From an uncultured bacterium (GTDB lineage Bacteria; Bdellovibrionota_G; JALEGL01; DATDPG01), in the NCBI GenBank assembly GCA_964397255.1, contig CAYNHQ010000004.1, positions 186,480-250,479 of the forward strand: 64,000 bases of DNA. The letters are read 5' to 3'. A model generated the notes under the pieces. That model searched no databases and was not told the origin of the DNA. It saw only the letters and a program-made list of their open reading frames with translations. The position numbers were made by a program, and so were the translations under genes. Positions 2,115-11,782 of this stretch are shown here, piece by piece; the stretch's first letter is position 1; every line of letters starts with the position of its first letter.

Positions 2115-3488
2115 TCAGAAATCGATCTCCGGGCCGCTCTTTTTCTCGAGGCTCACGTCTCCGAAGAGCGTCAGCGTTTTTTCATTTTTTCGAACTGGTC
2201 GGCGAACCACTTCTGGTCTACGGGATTGAGATTGGGAATCACCTTCTCTTGAAACGTCCTCCAGAGAATCGCGTCCTGGTTCTCTTTCAGATAAAAACGC
2301 CAAATGGAACAGACGCTTACCGCCACCACCGCCATGGCGAGGTTCAGGAGAAAGAAGACCCCGATCGCTTTGAGCTTGATTCCGTTGTTGGCTTGTCGAA
2401 TATCCTCCAGAACGTCCTGCGCCCGTTCGCAGGAGGAGCGAAAGCTCTCGCCCGCCGATTGATAGGTTCGCTGTAGCTGCTGGCTTTCGACCTGCGATTT
2501 GTGGGTCATCTCCCTTAACGAATCGAGCAAGGGACAGATTTTTTTCTCGAAGTCGTTGGCCACGTTTTTGAAGCTCTCGTGAGAGATCTGGAGAAGGTAG
2601 GGCGGATCCTTTTCGGAACTGTTCGATGGCCTGGAAAAGTCTTGGGTCATCTCGGTTTTGGTCATAACTGATTCCTTTCTCTTGTTGTAAGCCGTGCCAC
2701 GTATAGGCTCGGCCGAGGTTACTTCCTTTCATCGATTCGCCGTCCAGACGAAAGCGAATTCCTGAAATGTGGCCGGTCTTGGCCTGGTACGGAGAGACAT
2801 CGACATGCTGGTCCTGAAGCCGTCCAATAAAATCACTCATCGTCGGCTTTCCCTGTGCCGCTTCGTCGATGATCTGTTGTAGTCGGAGCTTTGTACTTGG
2901 CTCGCCGGTCCGAAGAACCCTGTGCAACTCTCCGGAGGTCGGTGATCGTGAGAGCGATTCCCGGCTTGGCAGAACTCGGGTCAGTCCATGCTCCAATTCC
3001 AGGCTCCGAATGGTCGTTTCACTCCGGCGGTAGTCGTGACTTTCTGAAACGACTTTGCCGTCTATGCCGATTCGGTTTGCCACAATATGAATATGGTCGT
3101 GAGGCGTATCGGTGTGTCGGACGATCAGGAATTGCGATTTCTTAAATCCCATCCGGTCGAGATAGGTGTGCGCAACCTCGTTCCATTTCTGATCCGAAAG
3201 GCGCTCGCCGGGTGGTAACGAAAGGCTTGCGTGGTACACGGGCCTTTTCATGCTCGGTTTCAAATTCCGGACCGCTCCGAATTCGGCGATAAGGTCTTTC
3301 GGGGATCGACCGACCATGTTTCCGCCGATCTGCTGCGCACCCTCCTTCCCGAGAACATACTTAACGAGGCCGCCAAAACTCTTCCCTTTGGTCTGCTTAC
3401 CGATCACGCCAACCTCGATGCCAAAACGTTTAGCGCCAGGTTCTGAACGGCGGCGCTTATCTCTTCGAGCAGGCCGACGCCGACGCAA
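2115..3488 (-). CDS. mobA: Mobilization relaxase (MobA/MobL-type relaxase domain)
   Basis: Catalytic Tyr region GKSFGGLVKYVLGKEG and 3-His motif HTDTPHDHIHIVANRIG. The first ~28 codons of the ORF overlap the mobC 3' end, so the real start is probably near 3405-3420 (GTG or ATT). The C-terminal ~180 aa are low-complexity (R/S/G-rich) and overlap an alternative-frame ORF. Confidence 0.7.
   Translation of the reverse strand: MRRRRPARRDKRRRSEPGAKRFGIEVGVIGKQTKGKSFGGLVKYVLGKEGAQQIGGNMVGRSPKDLIAEFGAVRNLKPSMKRPVYHASLSLPPGERLSDQKWNEVAHTYLDRMGFKKSQFLIVRHTDTPHDHIHIVANRIGIDGKVVSESHDYRRSETTIRSLELEHGLTRVLPSRESLSRSPTSGELHRVLRTGEPSTKLRLQQIIDEAAQGKPTMSDFIGRLQDQHVDVSPYQAKTGHISGIRFRLDGESMKGSNLGRAYTWHGLQQEKGISYDQNRDDPRLFQAIEQFRKGSALPSPDLSRELQKRGQRLREKNLSLARFVKGDDPQIAGRKPAATANLSIGGRELSLLLRTGAGRSGGYSTSQQRNQAQSDRGLLSPEPRHGGGGGKRLFHLAFLSEREPGRDSLEDVSREGDSQSQSRRPEVVRRPVRKNEKTLTLFGDVSLEKKSGPEIDF
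2171..2665 (-). CDS. Hypothetical membrane protein encoded out of frame inside the relaxase gene (mobB-like nested ORF)
   Basis: 164 aa with balanced composition and a clear TM helix AIGVFFLLNLAMAVVAVSVCSIW. It lies entirely within the 3' third of the relaxase ORF in another frame. Confidence 0.3.
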   Translation of the reverse strand: MTKTEMTQDFSRPSNSSEKDPPYLLQISHESFKNVANDFEKKICPLLDSLREMTHKSQVESQQLQRTYQSAGESFRSSCERAQDVLEDIRQANNGIKLKAIGVFFLLNLAMAVVAVSVCSIWRFYLKENQDAILWRTFQEKVIPNLNPVDQKWFADQFEKMKKR

Positions 3489-3829
3489 CTCGCCTGCCCG
3501 GAATGAATGGCCTTTGTCAGCTGGTTGAGGTTGTTCCCGACGCGAGCAAGCTCTTGATACGCGGATCTATTGATCTCGGGTGCGGGAAGAGGCGGAAGTC
3601 TACGCTTCAATACCGCCCGCCGGACGTATTCGCTCAGGCTTAGGTGGAAAGCTCGAGCGCTCATTCCGATCTCTTTTCGTTCTTCCGGCGTGAACCGAAT
3701 GGGAACGACGCGAGTCCTCCCGCGAACGGAGTGAGTGGGACCGCAAATCGACGTAGTCGGTTTGCATGGCTCGCTACTCACTTCTTCCCACATTCTTTCC
3801 CCCTGCTTCTCTTCCCATTTCTTTTTCAT
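3404..3829 (-). CDS. mobC: Relaxosome accessory protein MobC (ribbon-helix-helix mobilization protein)
   Basis: VVPIRFTPEERKEIGMSARAFHLSLSEYVRRAVL...YQELARVGNNLNQLTKAIHSGQ matches the MobC signature (RxTxEE...SxSEYIR...GNNLNQ). Start taken at the internal ATG at 3827-3829 (MKKKWEE). The upstream part of the 276-aa ORF overlaps a plus-strand gene and is judged non-coding. Confidence 0.7.
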   Translation of the reverse strand: MKKKWEEKQGERMWEEVSSEPCKPTTSICGPTHSVRGRTRVVPIRFTPEERKEIGMSARAFHLSLSEYVRRAVLKRRLPPLPAPEINRSAYQELARVGNNLNQLTKAIHSGQASCVGVGLLEEISAAVQNLALNVLASRLA

Positions 3830-3926
3830 CTTTTTGTCTTTTCTCTCTACGCATCTGTGATATAACACATTTGAGGTACACCGTGTCAACGCATAGTTAC
3901 GTGATAAAATATAACGTTTTAAGCCT

Positions 3927-4760
3927 ATGAATGTATTCAAAAATTCCGGGCAGCCTCCGGAGCCAGGTGTCGCCCAGGCGGAGAAGCCTCGATCGAACTT
4001 GGTCGGAATGAATGTACGGCTGGAGCCATCCCTCAAAAAGGCGATCGAGGCAGTAACTTGGGAATCCGGAGTCTCCCCAGGCGGGCTCATTCGAAGGCTC
4101 TCGTTCCAGGACATCACGAGAAATGTTGCGAACCGATGGAAGGCCCCGGAGTGGATCAAAGAGGAGCCACGTGCAGCGAACCTGAATTTTCTTGTGCTTG
4201 CCCGACATTCGGAAGCGATTCGACTTCGAGCCAAGGAACTAAATTTAAGCCTGACCGACTACATTCGCTCGCTCGCCATTTTCCAGGTTTTTGAAGCTGA
4301 AAAAGTGTTCAAAGAAAAGGGTCAAAAATTAACAATCTTGGACGAAACCTCAAGACACTATTGGCCAACCCTCGAAGCAAAATCGAAAAAGAGTTGGCTA
4401 TCGAAATGGACAAAAAGCAAGAGAGACCCAGACCTTCAAGACCAATTTCTACGCGACGTCGAGGGCGTTGACATCGCCGCCGGATACACCACGTACAAAG
4501 GCAAGAAGATCATCGAGCTTGTGAAAGGCGAGGCAGAAAAAGAGGGCTTAAGTCTTGCGGCCTATCAAAAGAAGCTCGTGTATGAAGACCTGGAACGAAA
4601 ATATGGGATGAAATTTGTGGCAGAAATTCTCGACGAACCGTTTGAGCAATGGGAGATGTATGATGATTTTATAAAGCGTGTGATCGATGATACCGGAAAG
4701 GTGAATATGGAATTCCTGAAACTCAAATCCTCGGCAAAATCGCCGCATACGAAGAAGTGA
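3927..4760 (+). CDS. Hypothetical protein with two N-terminal ribbon-helix-helix (CopG/MetJ-like) motifs
   Basis: MNVRLEPSLKKAIEAV... and FLVLARHSEAIRLRAKELNLSLTDYIRSLAI resemble RHH beta-strand plus helix units. The K/E-rich C-terminal ~150 aa is of unknown function. 16-nt gap to the next gene on the same strand. Confidence 0.5.
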   Translation: MNVFKNSGQPPEPGVAQAEKPRSNLVGMNVRLEPSLKKAIEAVTWESGVSPGGLIRRLSFQDITRNVANRWKAPEWIKEEPRAANLNFLVLARHSEAIRLRAKELNLSLTDYIRSLAIFQVFEAEKVFKEKGQKLTILDETSRHYWPTLEAKSKKSWLSKWTKSKRDPDLQDQFLRDVEGVDIAAGYTTYKGKKIIELVKGEAEKEGLSLAAYQKKLVYEDLERKYGMKFVAEILDEPFEQWEMYDDFIKRVIDDTGKVNMEFLKLKSSAKSPHTKK

Positions 4761-4776
4761 TGGAGATCAAAACTCA

Positions 4777-6243
4777 GTGACTCTGAATGAACTACGCCGC
4801 CTTGTCCGTGAAGGCGAAGGCCCCGGACTGGAGTTCAAACGAACGACGGGAGAGCTGAGCCGCGGTTTAGAAACGATATGTGCTTTTTTGAATACGGAAG
4901 GTGGACAGGTTTTGTTCGGCGTCGGCCCCAAGGGGACGATCGAAGGGCAGCAAGTCTCATCCCAAACCCTGCATGAAATCACCCAGGCATTCAGCCGATT
5001 CGAACCGCCGGCGGTGATCAAGATTGAACGGGTCAAGATCGGAAAAGGGCGCGAAATACTTGTTCTAAACCCGAAAATCGATTCGGAGTCGCTGCCGTTC
5101 ACGTTTGATGGTCGCCCCTATGAACGAGTCGGAAACACGACTCGGAAGATGCCGCAGCACCGATATGAGTCCCTTCTTTTTGAACGGGCTCACGCCACGC
5201 GGCGATGGGAGAATCAACCCGCCGAGGGCGTGCGTCTCAAAGACCTCGATCACGAGGAAATTTTAGCAACAAGGGAAGCCGCCATTGCGCAACGGCGGAT
5301 CTCCGCAGGAACCAGCCGGGATATCGGAGACATCCTCGACCGACTCGGCCTTCGCGTCGATGGAAAGATCACGCAGGCAGCGCAAGTTCTCTATGGGACG
5401 AAGTTCTTGCCTTACTATGCCCAGTGCCTTCTAAAAATGGGAAGGTTTCGGGGAACAAAAATCACAGGGGAAATCGTCGACAACAAGCAAGAACATTTGC
5501 ACGCTTTCGCGGTCGTACGGGAGGGGATGGCATTTTTAGACCGAACGCTTCCGCTCGGCGCGCGTTTCCCCGAGGGAAAGATTTTCCGGGAAGACCGCCT
5601 TCCGATTCCTCCGAATGCGCTCCGAGAAATCCTTCTCAATGCGGTGATGCATCGGGATTATTCCGATTATGGTGGACACATTGCGATCGCGATTTTCGAT
5701 GACCGCGTCGAAATCAGGAGTGCAGGAAAGCTTCCGGCCGGCGTGACCGTAGATCAACTATCAGGTCCTCACCTTTCAAAACTCCGTAACCTTCTCATCG
5801 CTGGAACGTTTCACCGGACCGGGGCGGTCGAAATCTGGGGTCGCGGCACAGACCGAGTCGTGGACGAGTGCAAACAGCATGGAATCGATCCCCCGATTTT
5901 TGAGGAACGACAAGGGTTCCTGATTGTAACGTTTCGGGCGCAGGTCGTCGTTACCTCGCGACAGCTAGAGTCACAGCCAGAGTCACAGCTAGAGTCGCGG
6001 CCAGAGTCGCTCGATAGACGGGTTTTAATTTTCCTCGAGAACGGTCCTTTGGGAAAAGCGGAAATTGCGGCGCGTATGAGCCAAAAGAAAGTCTCTGGCC
6101 AGCTCAACAAGGTGATTCGGGAACTCGTGAGCGAAGGCCTAATCGTGTATACGATTCCTGAAAAGCCAAACAGCCGGTTGCAGCGATATCAGATAACCAA
6201 AGTAGGCAAAAAACTCTTGGAGAAGAACGGTGAAAGCGAATAG
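4777..6243 (+). CDS. Schlafen-like AlbA_2 (putative DNA-binding) + HATPase_c_4 (RecG C-terminal-like ATPase) + C-terminal winged-HTH protein
   Basis: N-terminus LEFKRTTGELSRGLETICAFLNTEGGQVLFGV (AlbA_2-like). Central LREILLNAVMHRDYSDYGGHIAIAIFDDRVEIRSAGKLP (HATPase_c-like). C-terminus DRRVLIFLENGPLGKAEIAARMS... (wHTH). Family assignment made from memory of motifs. Confidence 0.65.
   Translation: MTLNELRRLVREGEGPGLEFKRTTGELSRGLETICAFLNTEGGQVLFGVGPKGTIEGQQVSSQTLHEITQAFSRFEPPAVIKIERVKIGKGREILVLNPKIDSESLPFTFDGRPYERVGNTTRKMPQHRYESLLFERAHATRRWENQPAEGVRLKDLDHEEILATREAAIAQRRISAGTSRDIGDILDRLGLRVDGKITQAAQVLYGTKFLPYYAQCLLKMGRFRGTKITGEIVDNKQEHLHAFAVVREGMAFLDRTLPLGARFPEGKIFREDRLPIPPNALREILLNAVMHRDYSDYGGHIAIAIFDDRVEIRSAGKLPAGVTVDQLSGPHLSKLRNLLIAGTFHRTGAVEIWGRGTDRVVDECKQHGIDPPIFEERQGFLIVTFRAQVVVTSRQLESQPESQLESRPESLDRRVLIFLENGPLGKAEIAARMSQKKVSGQLNKVIRELVSEGLIVYTIPEKPNSRLQRYQITKVGKKLLEKNGESE
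5961..6008 (+). repeat. In-frame 12-bp tandem repeat x4 (acagctagagtc / acagccagagtc / acagctagagtc / gcggccagagtc) encoding QLES-QPES-QLES-RPES
   Basis: Seen directly in the sequence. Lies between the ATPase core and the C-terminal wHTH of the 4777-6243 gene. Confidence 0.9.
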
Positions 6244-6495
6244 GCGACTGAATTACGGCGCGGAATAGCGACCGTTTTGCAATGCCTCTCCTTTACACCT
6301 GGCCACCGGCCGCTGAAGTCTCCCCATTGATCCGCGACAGTTTCGCAGAGACATTCACTCCGCAGCCCTCGCCCTCAAAGAAAAAATATTAATGATATTA
6401 ATTGCTTATATCTGAAATCCATTCTCTATAAATGGCCTATTGAATGCATGGAAATAGTGTGACAATATGCGTCAATTTTTCGAACGAGGTGTGAG

Positions 6496-7299
6496 ATGAG
6501 AACGAAGTGGATGGCAATAACGATGGCTGCTCTGGCGACCGCGTCGGCGCAAGCGGCTTCTGAAAAATCCGATCGGATTTGTGGGTTTCCCGGCGAAGCG
6601 GGTCACAATATTGAGCAGAGAATTGCGGATTGCAAAGTGGCCTACCCATCCGATTCAACACGGAAGTCCGACACGTCGAACGCAACCATCTCGTTGGTGA
6701 CTCGCTTGATTTCAAACAGTGGAAAGTCGGAAGATGTTTGGAAAGAGATGCCTAGCGGCCTTCTATGGTCGGATATCATTAAGCGAGTGACTGATCCCCC
6801 GAGCGACAAAGCACCTGATTCATCGGAGAAGCCCAAAACTACTTATTCATGGAATGAACTCATAGAGTGGGCAAAGTTGAAAACGGAGCCAGGTTCGTTG
6901 GAGTTTTTGGATGACGTAGAAACATATAGATGGGTCGAGAGGAAATATTCTGGAGGCAAATCCGTAAAATTTGATGACCCCGCTGGGAAAACCGTTTGCC
7001 AACTCGCGACTGAGAAGTTGGCCGCAATGGGGGGGCTTAAAGATGTTCATTGGCATCTTCCGACAGCTGACGAGCTAGCCCACATCGGAAGGGTGGATCA
7101 GAGCCGTTACAACGAATACGAAAAGAAAAATATCACAGGGAATGGGCTTTTTGCGAAACTTCCGAACATGGCCGATCATTGGTTTTGGTCCTCGTCGCCT
7201 GCCGGTGGCGTCAACGCGTGGGGGCTCAGCGGGAGCTTCGGCGATGTCGTCAGCGACGACCGCGACTACGACGGCGCCGTACGTTGCTTGGGCCGCTAG
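6496..7299 (+). CDS. Secreted DUF1566 (Lcl C-terminal domain-like) protein with signal peptide
   Basis: Signal peptide MRTKWMAITMAALATASAQA. C-terminal motifs VHWHLPTADEL...FWSSSPAGGVNAWGLSGSFGDV resemble DUF1566. AT-rich promoter region upstream. Confidence 0.5.
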   Translation: MRTKWMAITMAALATASAQAASEKSDRICGFPGEAGHNIEQRIADCKVAYPSDSTRKSDTSNATISLVTRLISNSGKSEDVWKEMPSGLLWSDIIKRVTDPPSDKAPDSSEKPKTTYSWNELIEWAKLKTEPGSLEFLDDVETYRWVERKYSGGKSVKFDDPAGKTVCQLATEKLAAMGGLKDVHWHLPTADELAHIGRVDQSRYNEYEKKNITGNGLFAKLPNMADHWFWSSSPAGGVNAWGLSGSFGDVVSDDRDYDGAVRCLGR

Positions 7300-7322
7300 G
7301 CGTGGGAAGGGTCAGCTTAGAA

Positions 7323-7366
7323 GGGGACTATCAGTCCGTGATGGATTGATAGTCCCCTTTGATTTT
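7323..7366 (+). terminator. Rho-independent terminator after the DUF1566 gene
   Basis: Perfect 11-bp inverted repeat ggggactatca / tgatagtcccc (loop 13 nt) followed by tttgatttt. Confidence 0.7.
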
Positions 7367-7496
7367 CACCCGTTTTCGATGGATCGAAATCTCTTCGGGA
7401 ATCGCACGGAACTCGGTGGTCCAATCGACCAGCCGATCGAGGGATTCTTTCCGAAGTCGATAGCTTTGGGCATGAATCAGATAGCCGAGGCAGGAA

Positions 7497-8078
7497 TTGA
7501 GTTTTGCCAGGCGGCTCTCAGTTATTTTCGGCCAGCTGGGAAACGCGAGCGCCTGGGTACCCGGCAACATCACGGATAATGTGTACGCCGAAATCTTATT
7601 CCTACGCGAGCTGGAGAAAAAGGAGACTGCGCCCACTGGCAGCGCAACAGTTGCTGAAAAAGTTAAAGGACCCAAGAACATTCAAGAGGCTATTGCCAAT
7701 TCTATTCGATTCCTAACGCGAGAATTAAGCGGACATGTGAAACTCTTGAGCCAGCACAATCAGCCCAAGGAGCTCTATAAAGAGATGGCAATTGAACAAT
7801 CCGGGTATGGGATGATCTGTCCTTTAGGAGATGTTGGCCAATGTCTCCTCTTACCAAAGGCCATAAAGGACGTTCTTCCGATTCAGATGCAGCATCTCAC
7901 GCCCGAAGTGGAAAAGTTTGTAAAGGCCACTACCGGGAAACTCATATATTACGACCCCGCACTCTTCGCCCAACGGGTCAGAGAAGCGAACGAGAAACAT
8001 CAGCGTGAGATCATTCGCGAAGGTCAATTCGCCGCCGAAGCGCAACAAAAAGCAGTCGATCGGCAATTGAAGTGGTAG
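7497..8078 (+). CDS. Hypothetical protein (island cargo); true start uncertain
   Basis: 193-aa ORF with protein-like composition from ~VYAEILFLRELEKKE onward. No recognisable domain. Overlaps a probably spurious minus-strand ORF. Confidence 0.35.
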   Translation: MSFARRLSVIFGQLGNASAWVPGNITDNVYAEILFLRELEKKETAPTGSATVAEKVKGPKNIQEAIANSIRFLTRELSGHVKLLSQHNQPKELYKEMAIEQSGYGMICPLGDVGQCLLLPKAIKDVLPIQMQHLTPEVEKFVKATTGKLIYYDPALFAQRVREANEKHQREIIREGQFAAEAQQKAVDRQLKW

Positions 8079-8352
8079 CCCGACTTCATTTGGATCATTA
8101 AGAAGAACAATTGACCAGCGGGCTAGTCGATAGCGAGGTTAACTTGCCCATACTTCGTCTTTTTGGGATTCACACGAGGGATACCATTTGGTTCGCGGTA
8201 ACCCTTTCCCGTGTCTTGGGTAATTTTGGGTAACAGGCCGACTGATACGGAGTGAAATGGGTGCTACTCAGTGATACTGCAGGTTTTGTTATCTGCTTGA
8301 TGTTATTGTTTTTGCCTTACGATCCGAACCGTTGCGCGCCCGCCCCTGCAGG

Positions 8353-8372
8353 CCCTGCGCCGCCACCAAATG
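8353..8372 (+). repeat. attR core: second copy of the 20-bp tRNA 3'-end sequence
   Basis: Exact match to 452-471. Confidence 0.75.
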
Positions 8373-8375
8373 ATT

Positions 8376-8420
8376 TCCGAATACGGTATTCGGAATACAG
8401 AATTCAGTATTCTAAAAAAT
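8376..8420 (+). promoter_or_regulatory. Cluster of GAATAC/GTATTC half-sites including the perfect palindrome ccgaatac-g-gtattcgg; candidate operator/promoter upstream of the 8440 gene
   Basis: Sequence ttccgaatacggtattcggaatacagaattcagtattct...gagtattct. Lies immediately outside attR and 20-60 nt upstream of the start codon. Confidence 0.4.
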
Positions 8421-8439
8421 CGAGTATTCTGCCCCGTTC

Positions 8440-10032
8440 ATGTCGACCGAAATCCAGTCCGTAGGGAACCTCTCAGACACCCCCCTCCTTCAATTATTTC
8501 GATGGGTTACCGAGAACCACTATAGCGGGGTCATGATTCTTGCCCACGACGAAGTGAAGAAATCGATCATTTTTGAAAAGGGCCAGATCATCTCCGCTCG
8601 TTCCAACATTATGTCGGAGTGTCTTGGGCAGCTCCTGCTCGCTCAAGGGAAGATTACTCAAGCTCAGCTCACTCAATCGCTGACCAAAACCGATGCACAG
8701 GAATCCATGCGACATGGAGAGGTGTTGATTGCGATGGGACTAATCGACCATGCCCTTCTAAATGATTTTCTTCGAAGACAAGTGGAAGTACGAATCGAAG
8801 AAATTTTTTCCTGGAAAGAAGGGAAATACGGCTTTGTTGAGAAAATTCCGGAGGATGCGGCCCGCGTAAAAATCGAAGGCACACTTCTTGAGATCGCTCT
8901 TAGGGGTCTAATTCGGCGATATTTGAAACAAGAAGATACGAAAGCGCTGAGTCTTGATTTAAAGCCAATTTCGATTGGAGGACATGGTATTGAAATTGAG
9001 CAACTGAAATTAGTGGGTCGAGAGATGAGTCTGTTGAGAGCTGTTTCTGGTGTGTCGACAATGAAAGATATTATTACGAAGTCACGAATGGATGAGCCCA
9101 TGGCACGCGCAATGTTTCTGGCATTTCGCGACTTCGGAATGATTCGAATCGGCGACACCGCTCCGCAAACTTCTCCCAGCACCCGATCTACCCCTCCGCC
9201 CCCACGCGAATCTTCAAAGCCGGCCCCTGCGCCATCATCTGCCACCGCATCGAAGCCGAGTACTCCGGCTCCGCAGACCCCGGCCACCAAAGGATTTAAC
9301 CCGGAGGAAATAGCCGATCGACTGGCCGCCGCGCAAACGCAAACCCTTTTCGATCTCTTAGGGGTTCCGCGACAGGCGACAACCGACGATATCAAGAAAG
9401 CCTATTTCGATCTTGCCAGGAAGTACCACCCCGATCGCTTGCCACCGAACATGTCCCCCGAAGATCGAAAAAATGCGGAAGCTCTATTTGCTCGAATTAC
9501 CGAAGCACAGACCAGGCTTACCAATCCTTCTTCGCGAAAAGAATATGAGGCCTCACTTGAATTGGAGGCGAGCGGGGTCGGGTCGGGACAAGTGAATGCG
9601 GTCCTGGAATCGGAGGCGGAGTTCCAGAAAGGGACGGCTCTTTTGCGGAAGGGGGATTTCAAAGGAGCTATGGAGGCTTATCAAAAAGCAATATCGCTTT
9701 ACGAAAAAGAACCCGAATATTTTTCACAGCTGGGTTGGGCGATGTTTCGTCAGTCGGCGAAGACGAAAAATGCCGCGGAACATGCGAAAGCAAAACGGGC
9801 GGTGGAGACGTCGATCAAGATGAATCCGAATTTGGCGCAATCGTATTACTACCTGGGCATGATCACGAAGACCGACGGCGATCTCGAAATGGCCAAGAAA
9901 CTGTTCAATAAAGCGGTAGAAATGAATCCAAAAAATGCGGAAGCGACTTCCGAACTCCGACTCATCAATTCGCGTCTGGAGAAGGAACATAAGGGAGGAC
10001 TTAAAGGGCTCTTTAAGAAAAAGGAAGCATGA
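8440..10032 (+). CDS. DUF4388-like N-terminal domain / J-domain (DnaJ) / TPR-repeat protein
   Basis: J-domain YFDLARKYHPDRLP (HPD motif). Pro/Ser-rich linker. C-terminal TPR-like repeats (AMEAYQKAISLYEKEPEYFSQLGWA..., AQSYYYLGMITKTDGDLEMAKKLFNKAVEMNP). N-terminus resembles the DUF4388/PATAN fold (from memory). Confidence 0.65.
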   Translation: MSTEIQSVGNLSDTPLLQLFRWVTENHYSGVMILAHDEVKKSIIFEKGQIISARSNIMSECLGQLLLAQGKITQAQLTQSLTKTDAQESMRHGEVLIAMGLIDHALLNDFLRRQVEVRIEEIFSWKEGKYGFVEKIPEDAARVKIEGTLLEIALRGLIRRYLKQEDTKALSLDLKPISIGGHGIEIEQLKLVGREMSLLRAVSGVSTMKDIITKSRMDEPMARAMFLAFRDFGMIRIGDTAPQTSPSTRSTPPPPRESSKPAPAPSSATASKPSTPAPQTPATKGFNPEEIADRLAAAQTQTLFDLLGVPRQATTDDIKKAYFDLARKYHPDRLPPNMSPEDRKNAEALFARITEAQTRLTNPSSRKEYEASLELEASGVGSGQVNAVLESEAEFQKGTALLRKGDFKGAMEAYQKAISLYEKEPEYFSQLGWAMFRQSAKTKNAAEHAKAKRAVETSIKMNPNLAQSYYYLGMITKTDGDLEMAKKLFNKAVEMNPKNAEATSELRLINSRLEKEHKGGLKGLFKKKEA

Positions 10033-10517
10033 ACGGCCCGCCCTCACTTCTGTTTGAACTTCATATCGCTATACTCGTGGTCGGAGTTCTCTTATTTCTG
10101 TTTGCGTCTCTCTCTTCGCTGATTTATTTGTTGGCGCAACGCCAACTGAAAAGTCGGAAGTTAGAGCCTTGGTTTCGCCGGCTTCCGCCGCTCGAGACCA
10201 TGGACCGTTGGACCGTGCGCGCTCTCATTCTGGGATTTGTTTCGTTGACCATCGGCATTGTCTCGGGAATTTATCTCGCCCATTTGGTGTGGCCCGCGGC
10301 CTGGATCCATGACCCCAAAGTGATTTGTGCGGTGGCCACGTGGGGATGGAATGTCTTGATTCTAATCGTTCGGTATCGACGCGGCTGGCGAGGGGCCAAG
10401 TTTTTTGCGCTCATTCTCGTTGGCTTTTTGTTTCTTTTGCTGACGTTTTTAGGAGTTTTCTTTGTGTTCCCCGCAGAACCTCATCGGATAGCCTCTGTAT
10501 GGATCTCGTTGTATTAG
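10029..10517 (+). CDS. hemX: Small polytopic membrane protein, HemX/CcsA (cytochrome c assembly family)-like, upstream of hemA
   Basis: Four predicted TM helices. W-rich segment WPAAWIHDPKV...ATWGWNVLILIV. Position upstream of hemA, ATGA-coupled to the preceding gene. Shorter than the canonical HemX. Confidence 0.35.
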   Translation: MNGPPSLLFELHIAILVVGVLLFLFASLSSLIYLLAQRQLKSRKLEPWFRRLPPLETMDRWTVRALILGFVSLTIGIVSGIYLAHLVWPAAWIHDPKVICAVATWGWNVLILIVRYRRGWRGAKFFALILVGFLFLLLTFLGVFFVFPAEPHRIASVWISLY

Positions 10518-11782
10518 GCGTGAATCACCGGACGGCGCCGCTGGAGGTTCGCGAGCGGCTCGATTTTTCGAAATATCCGCGCGAGGATTATCTTTCAAAA
10601 CTGGCCGGACAAAGCTCCGTCCGTTCCGGAATGGTTCTTTCGACGTGTAATCGCGTGGAAGTCTACGCCATGGGGAACAACGCCGAACGACTCCTGACGG
10701 ATGCAGACGAATTTCTTCGTATCTTTCATGGTCTAAGAAAAGGCGAAATTGAATCTTTTCTTTACAGCAAATCCAACATGGATGCCGTACGGCATCTCTT
10801 CCGAGTGGCCGCGAGCCTGGATTCGATGATTGTGGGCGAACCTCAAATCCTGGGCCAAGTGAAAGAAGCCTATTTTGCTTCCAGTGCCGCCTCTTTGGTG
10901 GATCCTATTTTTGATCGGCTTCTTCGGAAGACCTTTTCAGTGGCGAAGCGAGTTCGCAATGAAACCAATATCGCAGAACAGGCCGTGTCGATTAGTTACG
11001 CGGCCGTGGAGTTGGCTACCCACATATTTGGAAGGCTTGAAGGGAAGAAGGTGATGATTTTAGGGGGCGGGGAGATGGCTGAACTCGCTGCCCGTCATTT
11101 TTCAAAAGAAAACGTGGGCAAAATATACTTTGCAAACCGGACCTACGAATCGTCGGTCGAGCTTGCGAAAGAATTTAATGGGATCCCCATTCCGATCGAT
11201 CAATTTTCAAAAGACATTTTTGAAGTGGATATTCTTCTCGTTTCCACGGCCGCTCCTCACTATATGGTTCACGTAGGAGAAGTCGCCCGGGCGCTGGAAA
11301 TGCGGAAACAGGAACCAATGTTTTTCATCGATATCTCCGTGCCCCGGAATGTGGATCCGGCCATTAACGCCCTCGAAAATGTTTATTTGTACAATATTGA
11401 TGACCTTCAAAATGTAGTGGCCAACCATAAGGAAGCTCGCGCCCAGGAAGCGGAAAAGGCGGAAGCAATTATCGAACTGGAGATCAAACGTTTCTATGAG
11501 GCGATAGAGAGAATGAAAGTAGGCCCGATGATCGAGTCGCTGCAGGAAAAAGCCGAAACCGCCCGGCAAATGGAACTCTCCCGGCTTTCGAAACGACTTA
11601 AAAATGTGACGGCGGAGGAGATGGCCGAAATAGAGCGCGCGACCGAGTCCCTCGTTCGAAAAATTCTTCACGACCCGATCCAATTTTTGAAAGAAGACCC
11701 CAACGAAATGTCGCAGGCCGAGCGGACGGTCCTTTTTCAATCGATTTTCGGTCTTCGAAAAGAAAGCGAAGGGGAAGAGTGA
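10499..11782 (+). CDS. hemA: Glutamyl-tRNA reductase
   Basis: MDLVVLGVNHRTAPLEVRERL...LSTCNRVEVYA... with NAD-binding MILGGGEMAELAARHF. Start moved to the internal ATG at 10499; the track ORF from 10325 carries an implausible N-terminal extension overlapping hemX. Confidence 0.9.
   Translation: MDLVVLGVNHRTAPLEVRERLDFSKYPREDYLSKLAGQSSVRSGMVLSTCNRVEVYAMGNNAERLLTDADEFLRIFHGLRKGEIESFLYSKSNMDAVRHLFRVAASLDSMIVGEPQILGQVKEAYFASSAASLVDPIFDRLLRKTFSVAKRVRNETNIAEQAVSISYAAVELATHIFGRLEGKKVMILGGGEMAELAARHFSKENVGKIYFANRTYESSVELAKEFNGIPIPIDQFSKDIFEVDILLVSTAAPHYMVHVGEVARALEMRKQEPMFFIDISVPRNVDPAINALENVYLYNIDDLQNVVANHKEARAQEAEKAEAIIELEIKRFYEAIERMKVGPMIESLQEKAETARQMELSRLSKRLKNVTAEEMAEIERATESLVRKILHDPIQFLKEDPNEMSQAERTVLFQSIFGLRKESEGEE

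Follow-up and report, generated by a model that had tools for sequence, protein, structure and literature searches.

A probable Schlafen-ATPase-HTH defence gene carried as cargo behind a rare multi-ribbon-helix-helix gene in a small tRNA-Met island

Prokaryotic Schlafen proteins (pSlfn), 5,930 of which have been catalogued by Perez Taboada et al. (Nat Microbiol 2026, PMC13056530), are most commonly of the 'HisKinase' (34.0%) and 'HisKinase-HTH' (19.2%; HTH, helix-turn-helix) architectures, and 69.6% of their genes have a defence gene no more than 10 kb away, with 30.4% not near one. In that study, 2 of the 7 pSlfn constructs assayed for protection of E. coli, DUF262-Slfn and Ig-like-Slfn, were protective. 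The 'Schlatpase' supradomain, formed by AlbA_2 and PF13749, occurs in 60,692 of 103,533 prokaryotic SLFN proteins; Schlatpase proteins are mostly small, with an HTH in over 90% of the C-terminal tails, and have been noted as stand-alone copies in Type I restriction-modification (R-M) operons (bioRxiv 10.64898/2026.05.29.728809). In the SLFN-pAgo protein RzAgo, binding of ATP to the GHKL domain leads to tetramerisation and to the assembly of the Schlafen nuclease, upon which tRNA is cleaved and the infection is aborted (10.64898/2026.05.29.728809). A Schlafen of Enterococcus lactis has also been reported as a potent anti-phage protein. Here, we analyzed two adjacent genes in a 64,000-nucleotide (nt) stretch of DNA (hereafter the window) from an uncultured Bdellovibrionota_G bacterium (assembly GCA_964397255.1, contig CAYNHQ010000004.1, positions 186,480 to 250,479). 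Gene 1 (3927–4760, + strand, ATG start) encodes a 277-amino acid (aa) protein with ribbon-helix-helix (RHH) units, and gene 2 (4777–6243, + strand, GTG start preceded by GGAG approximately 10 nt upstream) a 488-aa protein with a Schlafen (AlbA_2) nuclease domain, a GHKL ATPase domain and a winged HTH (wHTH). Both belong to the rightward arm of an integrative mobilisable element inserted in a tRNA-Met gene. The reading that we favour, with a probability of about 0.65, is that gene 1 is a core island gene for a DNA-binding regulator or relaxosome helper and that gene 2, co-transcribed with it, is an independent, defence-type cargo gene.

The domain content of the gene 2 protein was determined by Pfam searches, in which three domains exceeded their gathering scores: SLFN_AlbA_2 (PF04326; residues 15–125, 64.3 bits against a cut-off of 25.3), HATPase_c_4 (PF13749; residues 299–386, 82.4 bits) and a Fic-like_C wHTH (residues 415–474, 29.7 bits against a cut-off of 27). 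This is the AlbA_2, HATPase_c_4 and wHTH arrangement that a first-pass annotation, made from the letters of the window alone, had proposed. That annotation had described AlbA_2 as a DNA-binding domain; the domain is not merely a binder, as it carries an intact Schlafen RNase motif, E-x4-E-x-K (E14-GPGL-E19-F-K21). When gene 2 was aligned with 44 homologues of 59% to 69% identity, E19 and K21 were invariant, E14 was conserved in at least 90% of the sequences, and the GHKL residues E284, N288, H292, D294, D308, G317, G349, G355, and G357 were invariant. This strict conservation of the catalytic motif and of the ATPase residues favours an active nuclease-ATPase over a mere binder. The AlphaFold2 (AF2) model, with a mean predicted local distance difference test score (pLDDT) of 75.8, is best defined in the N-terminal domain (above 90) and in the wHTH (block means of 83–91 over residues approximately 411–480). 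Its fold matched the full-length structural-genomics protein DIP2311 (3lmm, E 3e-18), the nuclease domains of SLFN11, SLFN12, and SLFN13, the SAMD9 tRNase domain, and the ATPase (CA) domains of PDK and histidine kinases. A sequence-profile search of the PDB likewise matched 3lmm, 2kyy (a 'RecG-related' AlbA_2 domain), Schlafen 8, and the wHTH at the C-terminus of Fic (4rgl, 8.4e-09). NCBIfam returned no match for gene 2. The PHROG label 'DNA helicase' was considered and rejected as a legacy 'RecG-like' mis-annotation, since the domain and fold searches show no helicase domain. In addition, a 12-nt tandem repeat at 5961–6008 within gene 2 encodes QLES/QPES/QLES/RPES; it sits in the disordered linker between the GHKL domain and the wHTH (residues 392–409, pLDDT below 50) and could render the linker length variable.

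Gene 2 is a standard member of the described Schlafen-ATPase-HTH family (Schlatpase, or pSlfn-HisKinase-HTH). It has the same order of AlbA_2, GHKL (PF13749), and C-terminal HTH, it keeps the E-x4-(E/D)-x-K motif and the GHKL catalytic Glu/Asn, its fold resembles SLFN nucleases and GHKL ATPases, and its relatives are found in R-M/defence neighbourhoods. The earlier statement that no described system matches this locus therefore holds for the pairing of an RHH protein with a Schlafen-ATPase but not for gene 2, whose architecture is published and of the commonest pSlfn kind. The Schlatpase module is also common to RzAgo and gene 2; gene 2 differs from SLFN-pAgo in that it has no Argonaute core, hence no guide-dependent sensing, and has a wHTH in the place of the sensor. 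On the pattern of characterised prokaryotic Schlafens and SLFN-pAgo, binding of ATP to the GHKL domain of the gene 2 protein would lead to oligomerisation, which would assemble the Schlafen active site (E14/E19/K21); the protein would then cleave RNA, probably tRNA, and cause growth arrest (abortive infection) on phage infection, with the wHTH acting as a sensor or regulatory module. Gene 2 is thus probably an anti-phage RNA nuclease, as judged from its likeness to these proteins, and would behave as interchangeable cargo that is expressed from the promoter of gene 1 and acts alone.

To place gene 2 in its genomic context, we analyzed its relatives, of which more than 1000 were found at E<1e-30. 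The top 120 are 59% to 74% identical to gene 2, and those whose source is named come from Planctomycetes, Deltaproteobacteria, and Nitrospirae. The family occurs at 60% to 70% identity across Planctomycetota, Thermodesulfobacteriota, Betaproteobacteria, and Sumerlaeota, a pattern that fits horizontal spread. Neighbourhoods were then compared for 80 loci with gene 2 relatives in species-representative genomes. The immediate neighbours on the same strand are mainly restriction and helicase genes: HsdR in 8 loci, usually with a 4-nt overlap, and elsewhere N6_Mtase/Eco57I-type methylases, PLD-ResIII helicases, PglZ, and PIN. Other relatives adjoin housekeeping genes (DNA polymerase III alpha, AcrB, asparagine synthase). 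The gene 2 of the window has none of these R-M or helicase partners, and this, together with its position behind an RHH gene on a small mobilisable island, is what distinguishes it from its described counterparts. It is an unusually clean stand-alone Schlafen-ATPase-HTH gene on a minimal mobilisable island, which makes it a convenient test case for whether the commonest prokaryotic Schlafen class works autonomously; phage defence by the HisKinase(-HTH) class is still unproven in the literature (PMC13056530).

Two arrangements stood out among these loci. A gene of approximately 950–1150 aa encoding an SNF2 helicase with a NOV_C (DUF3883) domain is adjacent to the gene 2 relative in 6 loci (L012, L014, L046, L061, L067, and L075), with a spacing between the SNF2-NOV_C and Schlafen-ATPase genes of either a 4-nt overlap or 35 nt. 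In three of them (L012 780–3614, L014 2269–5706, and L046 2900–5917) it lies directly 5' of the closest relatives of gene 2, which have 63% to 67% identity. This looks like a conserved two-gene arrangement, for which we found no corresponding named defence system; the window gene 2 has no such neighbour. In the second arrangement, genes of a second Schlafen-ATPase-HTH subgroup overlap a Type I hsdR gene at its start by 4 nt (L031, L034, L036, L037, L039, L041, L064, and L087, at approximately 6000–10700 in each). PrrC, which belongs to an unrelated protein family, is a latent anticodon nuclease located inside the Type I R-M locus EcoprrI. The presence of a gene 2 subgroup in Type I R-M operons might, as a conjecture that concerns these relatives only, echo such a tRNA nuclease that backs up restriction; the window gene 2 differs from PrrC in having no R-M genes nearby.

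These neighbourhoods bear on a different view of gene 2, namely that it is not a defence gene but a nucleic-acid-binding regulator that bears an HTH, gives no phage phenotype and is passively carried by the island. The C-terminal wHTH and old annotations as 'transcriptional regulator' or 'RecG-like helicase' are consistent with it, as are the proportion of pSlfn genes away from defence genes and the absence of a protective construct of the HisKinase class (PMC13056530), the lack of a PADLOC model match, the missing R-M/helicase partners in the window, and the relatives found by the housekeeping genes mentioned above. However, the catalytic and ATPase residues of gene 2 are strictly conserved, the linkage of its relatives to R-M and helicase genes is strong and repeated, often with 4-nt overlaps, SLFN-pAgo defence uses this supradomain as its effector, and the distribution of the family fits horizontal spread. 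We consider the regulator view unlikely and retain gene 2 as defence-type cargo.

Whether gene 1 belongs functionally with gene 2 was addressed from both sides. The two genes are on a common strand and separated by 16 nt; mobC, on the opposite strand, precedes them and a cargo gene for a 267-aa Lcl_C-domain protein follows, and in this respect the open reading frames (ORFs) and Pfam agree with the first-pass annotation. That annotation had also interpreted them as an RHH/AlbA_2 antitoxin-effector or addiction pair and had named co-conservation of the pair across genomes as a point on which this proposal turns; the pair is not co-conserved. A hidden Markov model of the gene 1 family did not match any ORF in the 80 loci of gene 2 relatives (0/80), even at E<=10, and no RHH family is among the 25 most frequent neighbour families of these relatives. 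Conversely, no AlbA_2 gene is present downstream in 6 of the 8 gene 1 contexts. The families also differ in size, with more than 1000 close relatives for gene 2 versus 3 for gene 1. The proposed pair is therefore not supported, and the candidacy for defence stands for gene 2 as cargo, on the grounds of its Schlatpase membership and R-M/helicase-flanked relatives, in a family already described in 2025–2026.

Gene 1 itself defines a very rare family. Searches of 5.8 billion proteins with the single sequence or a profile matched four proteins, and an exhaustive reading of 1.84 billion representatives gave 12, of which the eight additional members include some fragments. Profile searches to widen the family yielded nothing beyond the initial four proteins, or duplicates of two of these, and tblastn against 72,556 plasmids gave zero matches. 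The four close members are 37% to 46% identical in their alignment. Eight genomic contexts could be compared. In the window, gene 1 is preceded by int-HTH_17-relaxase-mobC and followed by the Schlafen-ATPase gene at 16 nt, and in L005/L090 (P0004) it is preceded by mobC and followed by an AlbA_2 gene at 8 nt. In L001 (P0003), a Bdellovibrionota metagenome-assembled genome in which the island lies by a tRNA-Leu, an integrase remnant, HTH_17, relaxase, and mobC are found upstream and unknown 110-aa and 200-aa genes downstream. The contig of L008 (P0002) begins within the gene and the downstream gene is not AlbA_2. In L091 (P0125), int and HTH_17 are upstream and a convergent response regulator downstream; in L092 (P0126), HTH_17 is upstream and two unrelated small genes downstream; in L093 (P0128), no upstream gene was called and the downstream ORF is convergent; and in L095 (P0131), by a tRNA-Ser, int is upstream and MerR, SBF, ArsP, and thioredoxin cargo downstream. 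Gene 1 points away from the integration/mobilisation genes in all 6 contexts with a readable upstream flank, and mobC, with or without a visible relaxase, accompanies it in the window, L001, and L005/L090. The gene downstream varies, with a Schlafen-ATPase in 2 of the 8 contexts, and these two are not orthologous. The small genes downstream of the homologues in L001 and L092 were considered as a conserved partner and rejected, since they are not homologous to each other. This indicates that gene 1 is a core gene of a family of tRNA-integrating islands and that the slot behind it holds variable cargo. A search with 12-nt seeds detected no attachment (att) repeats in L001, L091, or L095.

Two members of this island family are worth describing further. 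The tRNA-Ser/integrase island of L095 (5393–14040, GCA_043809315.1), which has a distant gene 1 homologue, contains MerR, SBF, ArsP, thioredoxin, DsbD-like, and AbiEii genes as cargo, and shows that the backbone of the gene 1 family also bears metal-resistance-type cargo. In L091 (106–2528), the convergent response-regulator gene comes directly after integrase, HTH_17, and the gene 1 homologue, which together may form a minimal island of three genes; neither a tRNA nor an att repeat was found on its 4-kb contig.

The protein encoded by gene 1 gave one Pfam match, to a NikA-like RHH at residues 81–118 (29.7 bits; cut-off, 27). When the four close members of the family were aligned, three RHH-like units became apparent, at residues approximately 25–65, 84–130, and 186–226, with conserved sequences NVRLEPSLKKAIE... 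in unit 1, NLNFLV...AIRLRAKELNLSLTDYIRSLAI in unit 2, and GYTTYKGKKII...AEKEGLSLAAYQKKLVYEDL in unit 3. Units 2 and 3 have the pattern E-x-x-LSL-x-x-Y-x-x-x-L in common, and unit 3 is the best-conserved stretch of the family. The previous description of the protein as two RHH motifs followed by an unknown K/E-rich C-domain was correct as to the RHH fold, given the NikA-like match, and has to be amended by the third RHH-like unit, which lies inside that C-domain. Sub-threshold DUF6290/RelB matches were obtained over the unit 3 region (197–237), and the profile search of PDB sequences gave only sub-threshold matches to Arc (Arc repressor, E 0.27) and NikA. The AF2 model, built from only 4 sequences (mean pLDDT 61.5), predicts β25–32/α34–47/α51–65 for unit 1, β84–91/α92–104/α109–130 for unit 2, and a helix pair (193–205 and 210–226) for unit 3. 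Its best Foldseek matches were chains E/F/G of the F-plasmid relaxosome structures 9f0x–9f12, which are TraY, with weak E values of 0.1–0.5, a probability of up to 1.0, a TM-score of up to 0.64, and a root-mean-square deviation of 2.6 Å over 97 columns; 'Permuted single-chain Arc' and DndE came next in the list.

TraY, which binds the origin of transfer (oriT), is a monomer whose single chain comprises the equivalent of an entire RHH dimer. Gene 1 resembles TraY and NikA in its RHH fold, with residues 25–130 forming two RHH units in one chain as in TraY, and in its location next to the mobC-relaxase genes and a repeat-bearing intergenic region. It differs from TraY in its third RHH unit, its long linkers and its length (277 aa versus 131 aa), and in lacking detectable sequence homology to it; moreover, several members of the family are in islands without a visible relaxase or mobC. 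Gene 1 most likely encodes a single-chain, TraY/NikA-like multi-RHH DNA-binding protein. Because the islands without a visible relaxase still keep gene 1, a purely relaxosomal role is doubtful, and regulation of transcription is at least as likely. As a rare single-chain multi-RHH family in the core of tRNA-integrating islands, these proteins are modestly interesting for how small mobilisable elements organise regulation or the relaxosome, although neither gene 1 nor gene 2 alters current understanding.

Candidate targets of this protein were found in the divergent intergenic region between mobC and gene 1 (3830–3926), a putative operator/oriT. The sole sigma-70-like promoter predicted within 3400–8500 is located here, at 3883–3910 on the + strand just 5' of gene 1, and direct repeats TCWACGCAT...GTGATAWAA at 3846–3865 and 3886–3909 overlap the predicted promoter. 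The blocks TTTGT, TACG, TATAAC, GTCAA, and CGTG are kept in this region of the window, in L001 (7873–8003), and in L005 (252–338), despite the flanking proteins being only 37% to 48% identical (45% to 48% to the window protein for MobC). These blocks are candidates for the oriT, operators or promoters of the island family, and the TCWACGCAT/GTGATAWAA repeats are plausible binding sites of the RHH protein. By binding to these repeats, the gene 1 protein would autoregulate its rightward promoter, regulate the leftward mob promoter, aid relaxosome assembly at oriT in the manner of TraY/NikA, or do several of these. In the 16-nt gap between genes 1 and 2, neither a terminator-like site nor a second promoter was predicted, and the one terminator-like site found on the + strand before the gene 2 stop lies within the coding region of gene 2. 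Because the gap has no terminator-like site and the single predicted promoter is 5' of gene 1, the two genes are likely co-transcribed from the gene 1 promoter. The 9-mer ATGAATGTA is present at both 3927 and 4008, encoding M-N-V each time, and the ATG at 4008 is an alternative start of gene 1. Since residues 1–27 are poorly conserved, residues 1–21 have a pLDDT below 50, and the predicted -10 element ends just 16 nt 5' of 3927, translation may in fact begin at 4008, or the mRNA may have almost no leader.

The shared strand, the 16-nt gap, and the absence of a predicted terminator or second promoter between the genes would also be expected if they formed a true regulator-effector or antitoxin-toxin module, in which the RHH protein represses or neutralises the Schlafen-ATPase and sets it free when phages attack or when the island is lost or transferred. 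As in type II toxin-antitoxin systems (RelB, CopG/Arc-type), a mobile element here carries an RHH gene directly 5' of a gene for a nuclease that could be toxic, and unit 3 shows the weak RelB/DUF6290-like similarities mentioned above. The AlbA_2 gene located 8 nt behind the gene 1 homologue of L005/L090 points in the same direction. We asked whether the two AlbA_2 genes might be orthologues inherited with the island, and rejected this because the window gene 2 and the L005/L090 protein are only 27% identical, belong to different Schlafen-ATPase subfamilies, with the L005 protein showing more similarity to the subgroup embedded in Type I R-M operons (32% to 34% identity, twice the bit score). 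As the genes are not orthologous, capture of, or replacement by, a gene of this kind happened on two occasions in this slot, which fits either a hotspot for defence-gene cargo or some functional affinity. Against a two-gene module, none of the 80 gene 2 loci has a gene 1-like ORF, 6 of the 8 gene 1 contexts have no downstream AlbA_2 gene, the gene 1 family co-varies with int/xis/mob rather than with the cargo, and the numbers of close relatives are very unequal. In addition, gene 1 differs from a small one-domain antitoxin with a tail in being three to four times the size of an RHH antitoxin, with three DNA-binding units, and gene 2 is a multidomain ATPase-nuclease mostly found without an RHH partner. 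We regard a dedicated module as quite improbable.

A related idea is that the triple-RHH protein is an island-family gatekeeper that makes expression of a Schlafen-type RNase depend on what the element is doing, for example with de-repression on excision, transfer or phage attack. It is hinted at by the fact that, in two related islands, non-orthologous Schlafen-ATPase genes follow the RHH gene at 8–16 nt. If true, RHH plus Schlafen-ATPase would constitute a novel defence or addiction module of two genes that mobile elements carry; we find this very doubtful.

Several observations weigh against the core-plus-cargo reading to which we return. The presence of an AlbA_2 gene 8–16 nt downstream in 2 of the 8 gene 1 contexts is above the expectation from random placement. 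The resemblance of gene 1 to TraY is weak, both in the Foldseek E value (0.1–1) and in the model on which it is based, and neither a relaxase nor mobC is seen in L091, L092, and L095, where just int and/or HTH_17 flank gene 1. Perez Taboada et al. included HisKinase in the four architectures that they chose for test, and neither of the two protective constructs had it (PMC13056530). The island contains no other defence gene recognised in the Pfam and PADLOC scans. Finally, the HMM check that had been suggested at the outset confirmed PF04326 and PF13749 in gene 2, but PADLOC 2.0 gave no real match for the four rightward-arm proteins, only noise-level pAgo/SIR2 matches over the GHKL region; the weak pAgo match covers residues 261–388 of gene 2 and is explained by its membership in the Schlatpase family, the module of which is common to SLFN-pAgo.

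The limits of the island were set by a 25-nt direct repeat over the 3' end of the tRNA-Met (CAT) gene (391–467, + strand; identified with ARAGORN, Rfam tRNA 68.4 bits), the integration target and the sole match in an Rfam scan of the window. The two copies, attL (452–476) and attR (8353–8377), are 23/25 identical, their first 20 nt being exactly CCCTGCGCCGCCACCAAATG, and delimit an element of approximately 7.9 kb. The leftward arm, transcribed from the - strand, encodes a tyrosine integrase (566–1837; Pfam Phage_integrase 1.9e-21), an HTH_17 excisionase-like protein (1830–2093; 3.6e-13), a MobA/VirD2-type relaxase (2115–3488; Pfam Relaxase 1.7e-36) that is 59% identical to the relaxase of L001, and the relaxosome accessory protein MobC (3404–3829; NikA-like RHH 3.1e-17 and MobC 1.3e-07). 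The start codon of mobC is uncertain (3811 or 3829), and the gene was called as 141 aa on an identical Logan contig. On the + strand, gene 2 is followed by the Lcl_C-domain gene (6496–7299), whose 35.0 bits are barely at the cut-off of 34.9, and by a 193-aa cargo ORF without a family match (7497–8078). Beyond 8440 the genes look chromosomal, the first encoding a DnaJ-domain/TPR protein and being followed by further long ORFs. On Logan contig L096, which carries an identical gene 1, the relaxase region (1453–2728, identical in sequence to window positions approximately 2171–3446) was called as two short opposite-strand genes and not as one 457-aa ORF. Just within both island ends, at 521–541 and 8216–8236, there is a 21-nt direct repeat, TTGGGTAAYTTTGGGTAACAG (20/21 identical), with an internal tandem TTGGGTAA, and these end repeats may be arm-type binding sites of the integrase/excisionase.

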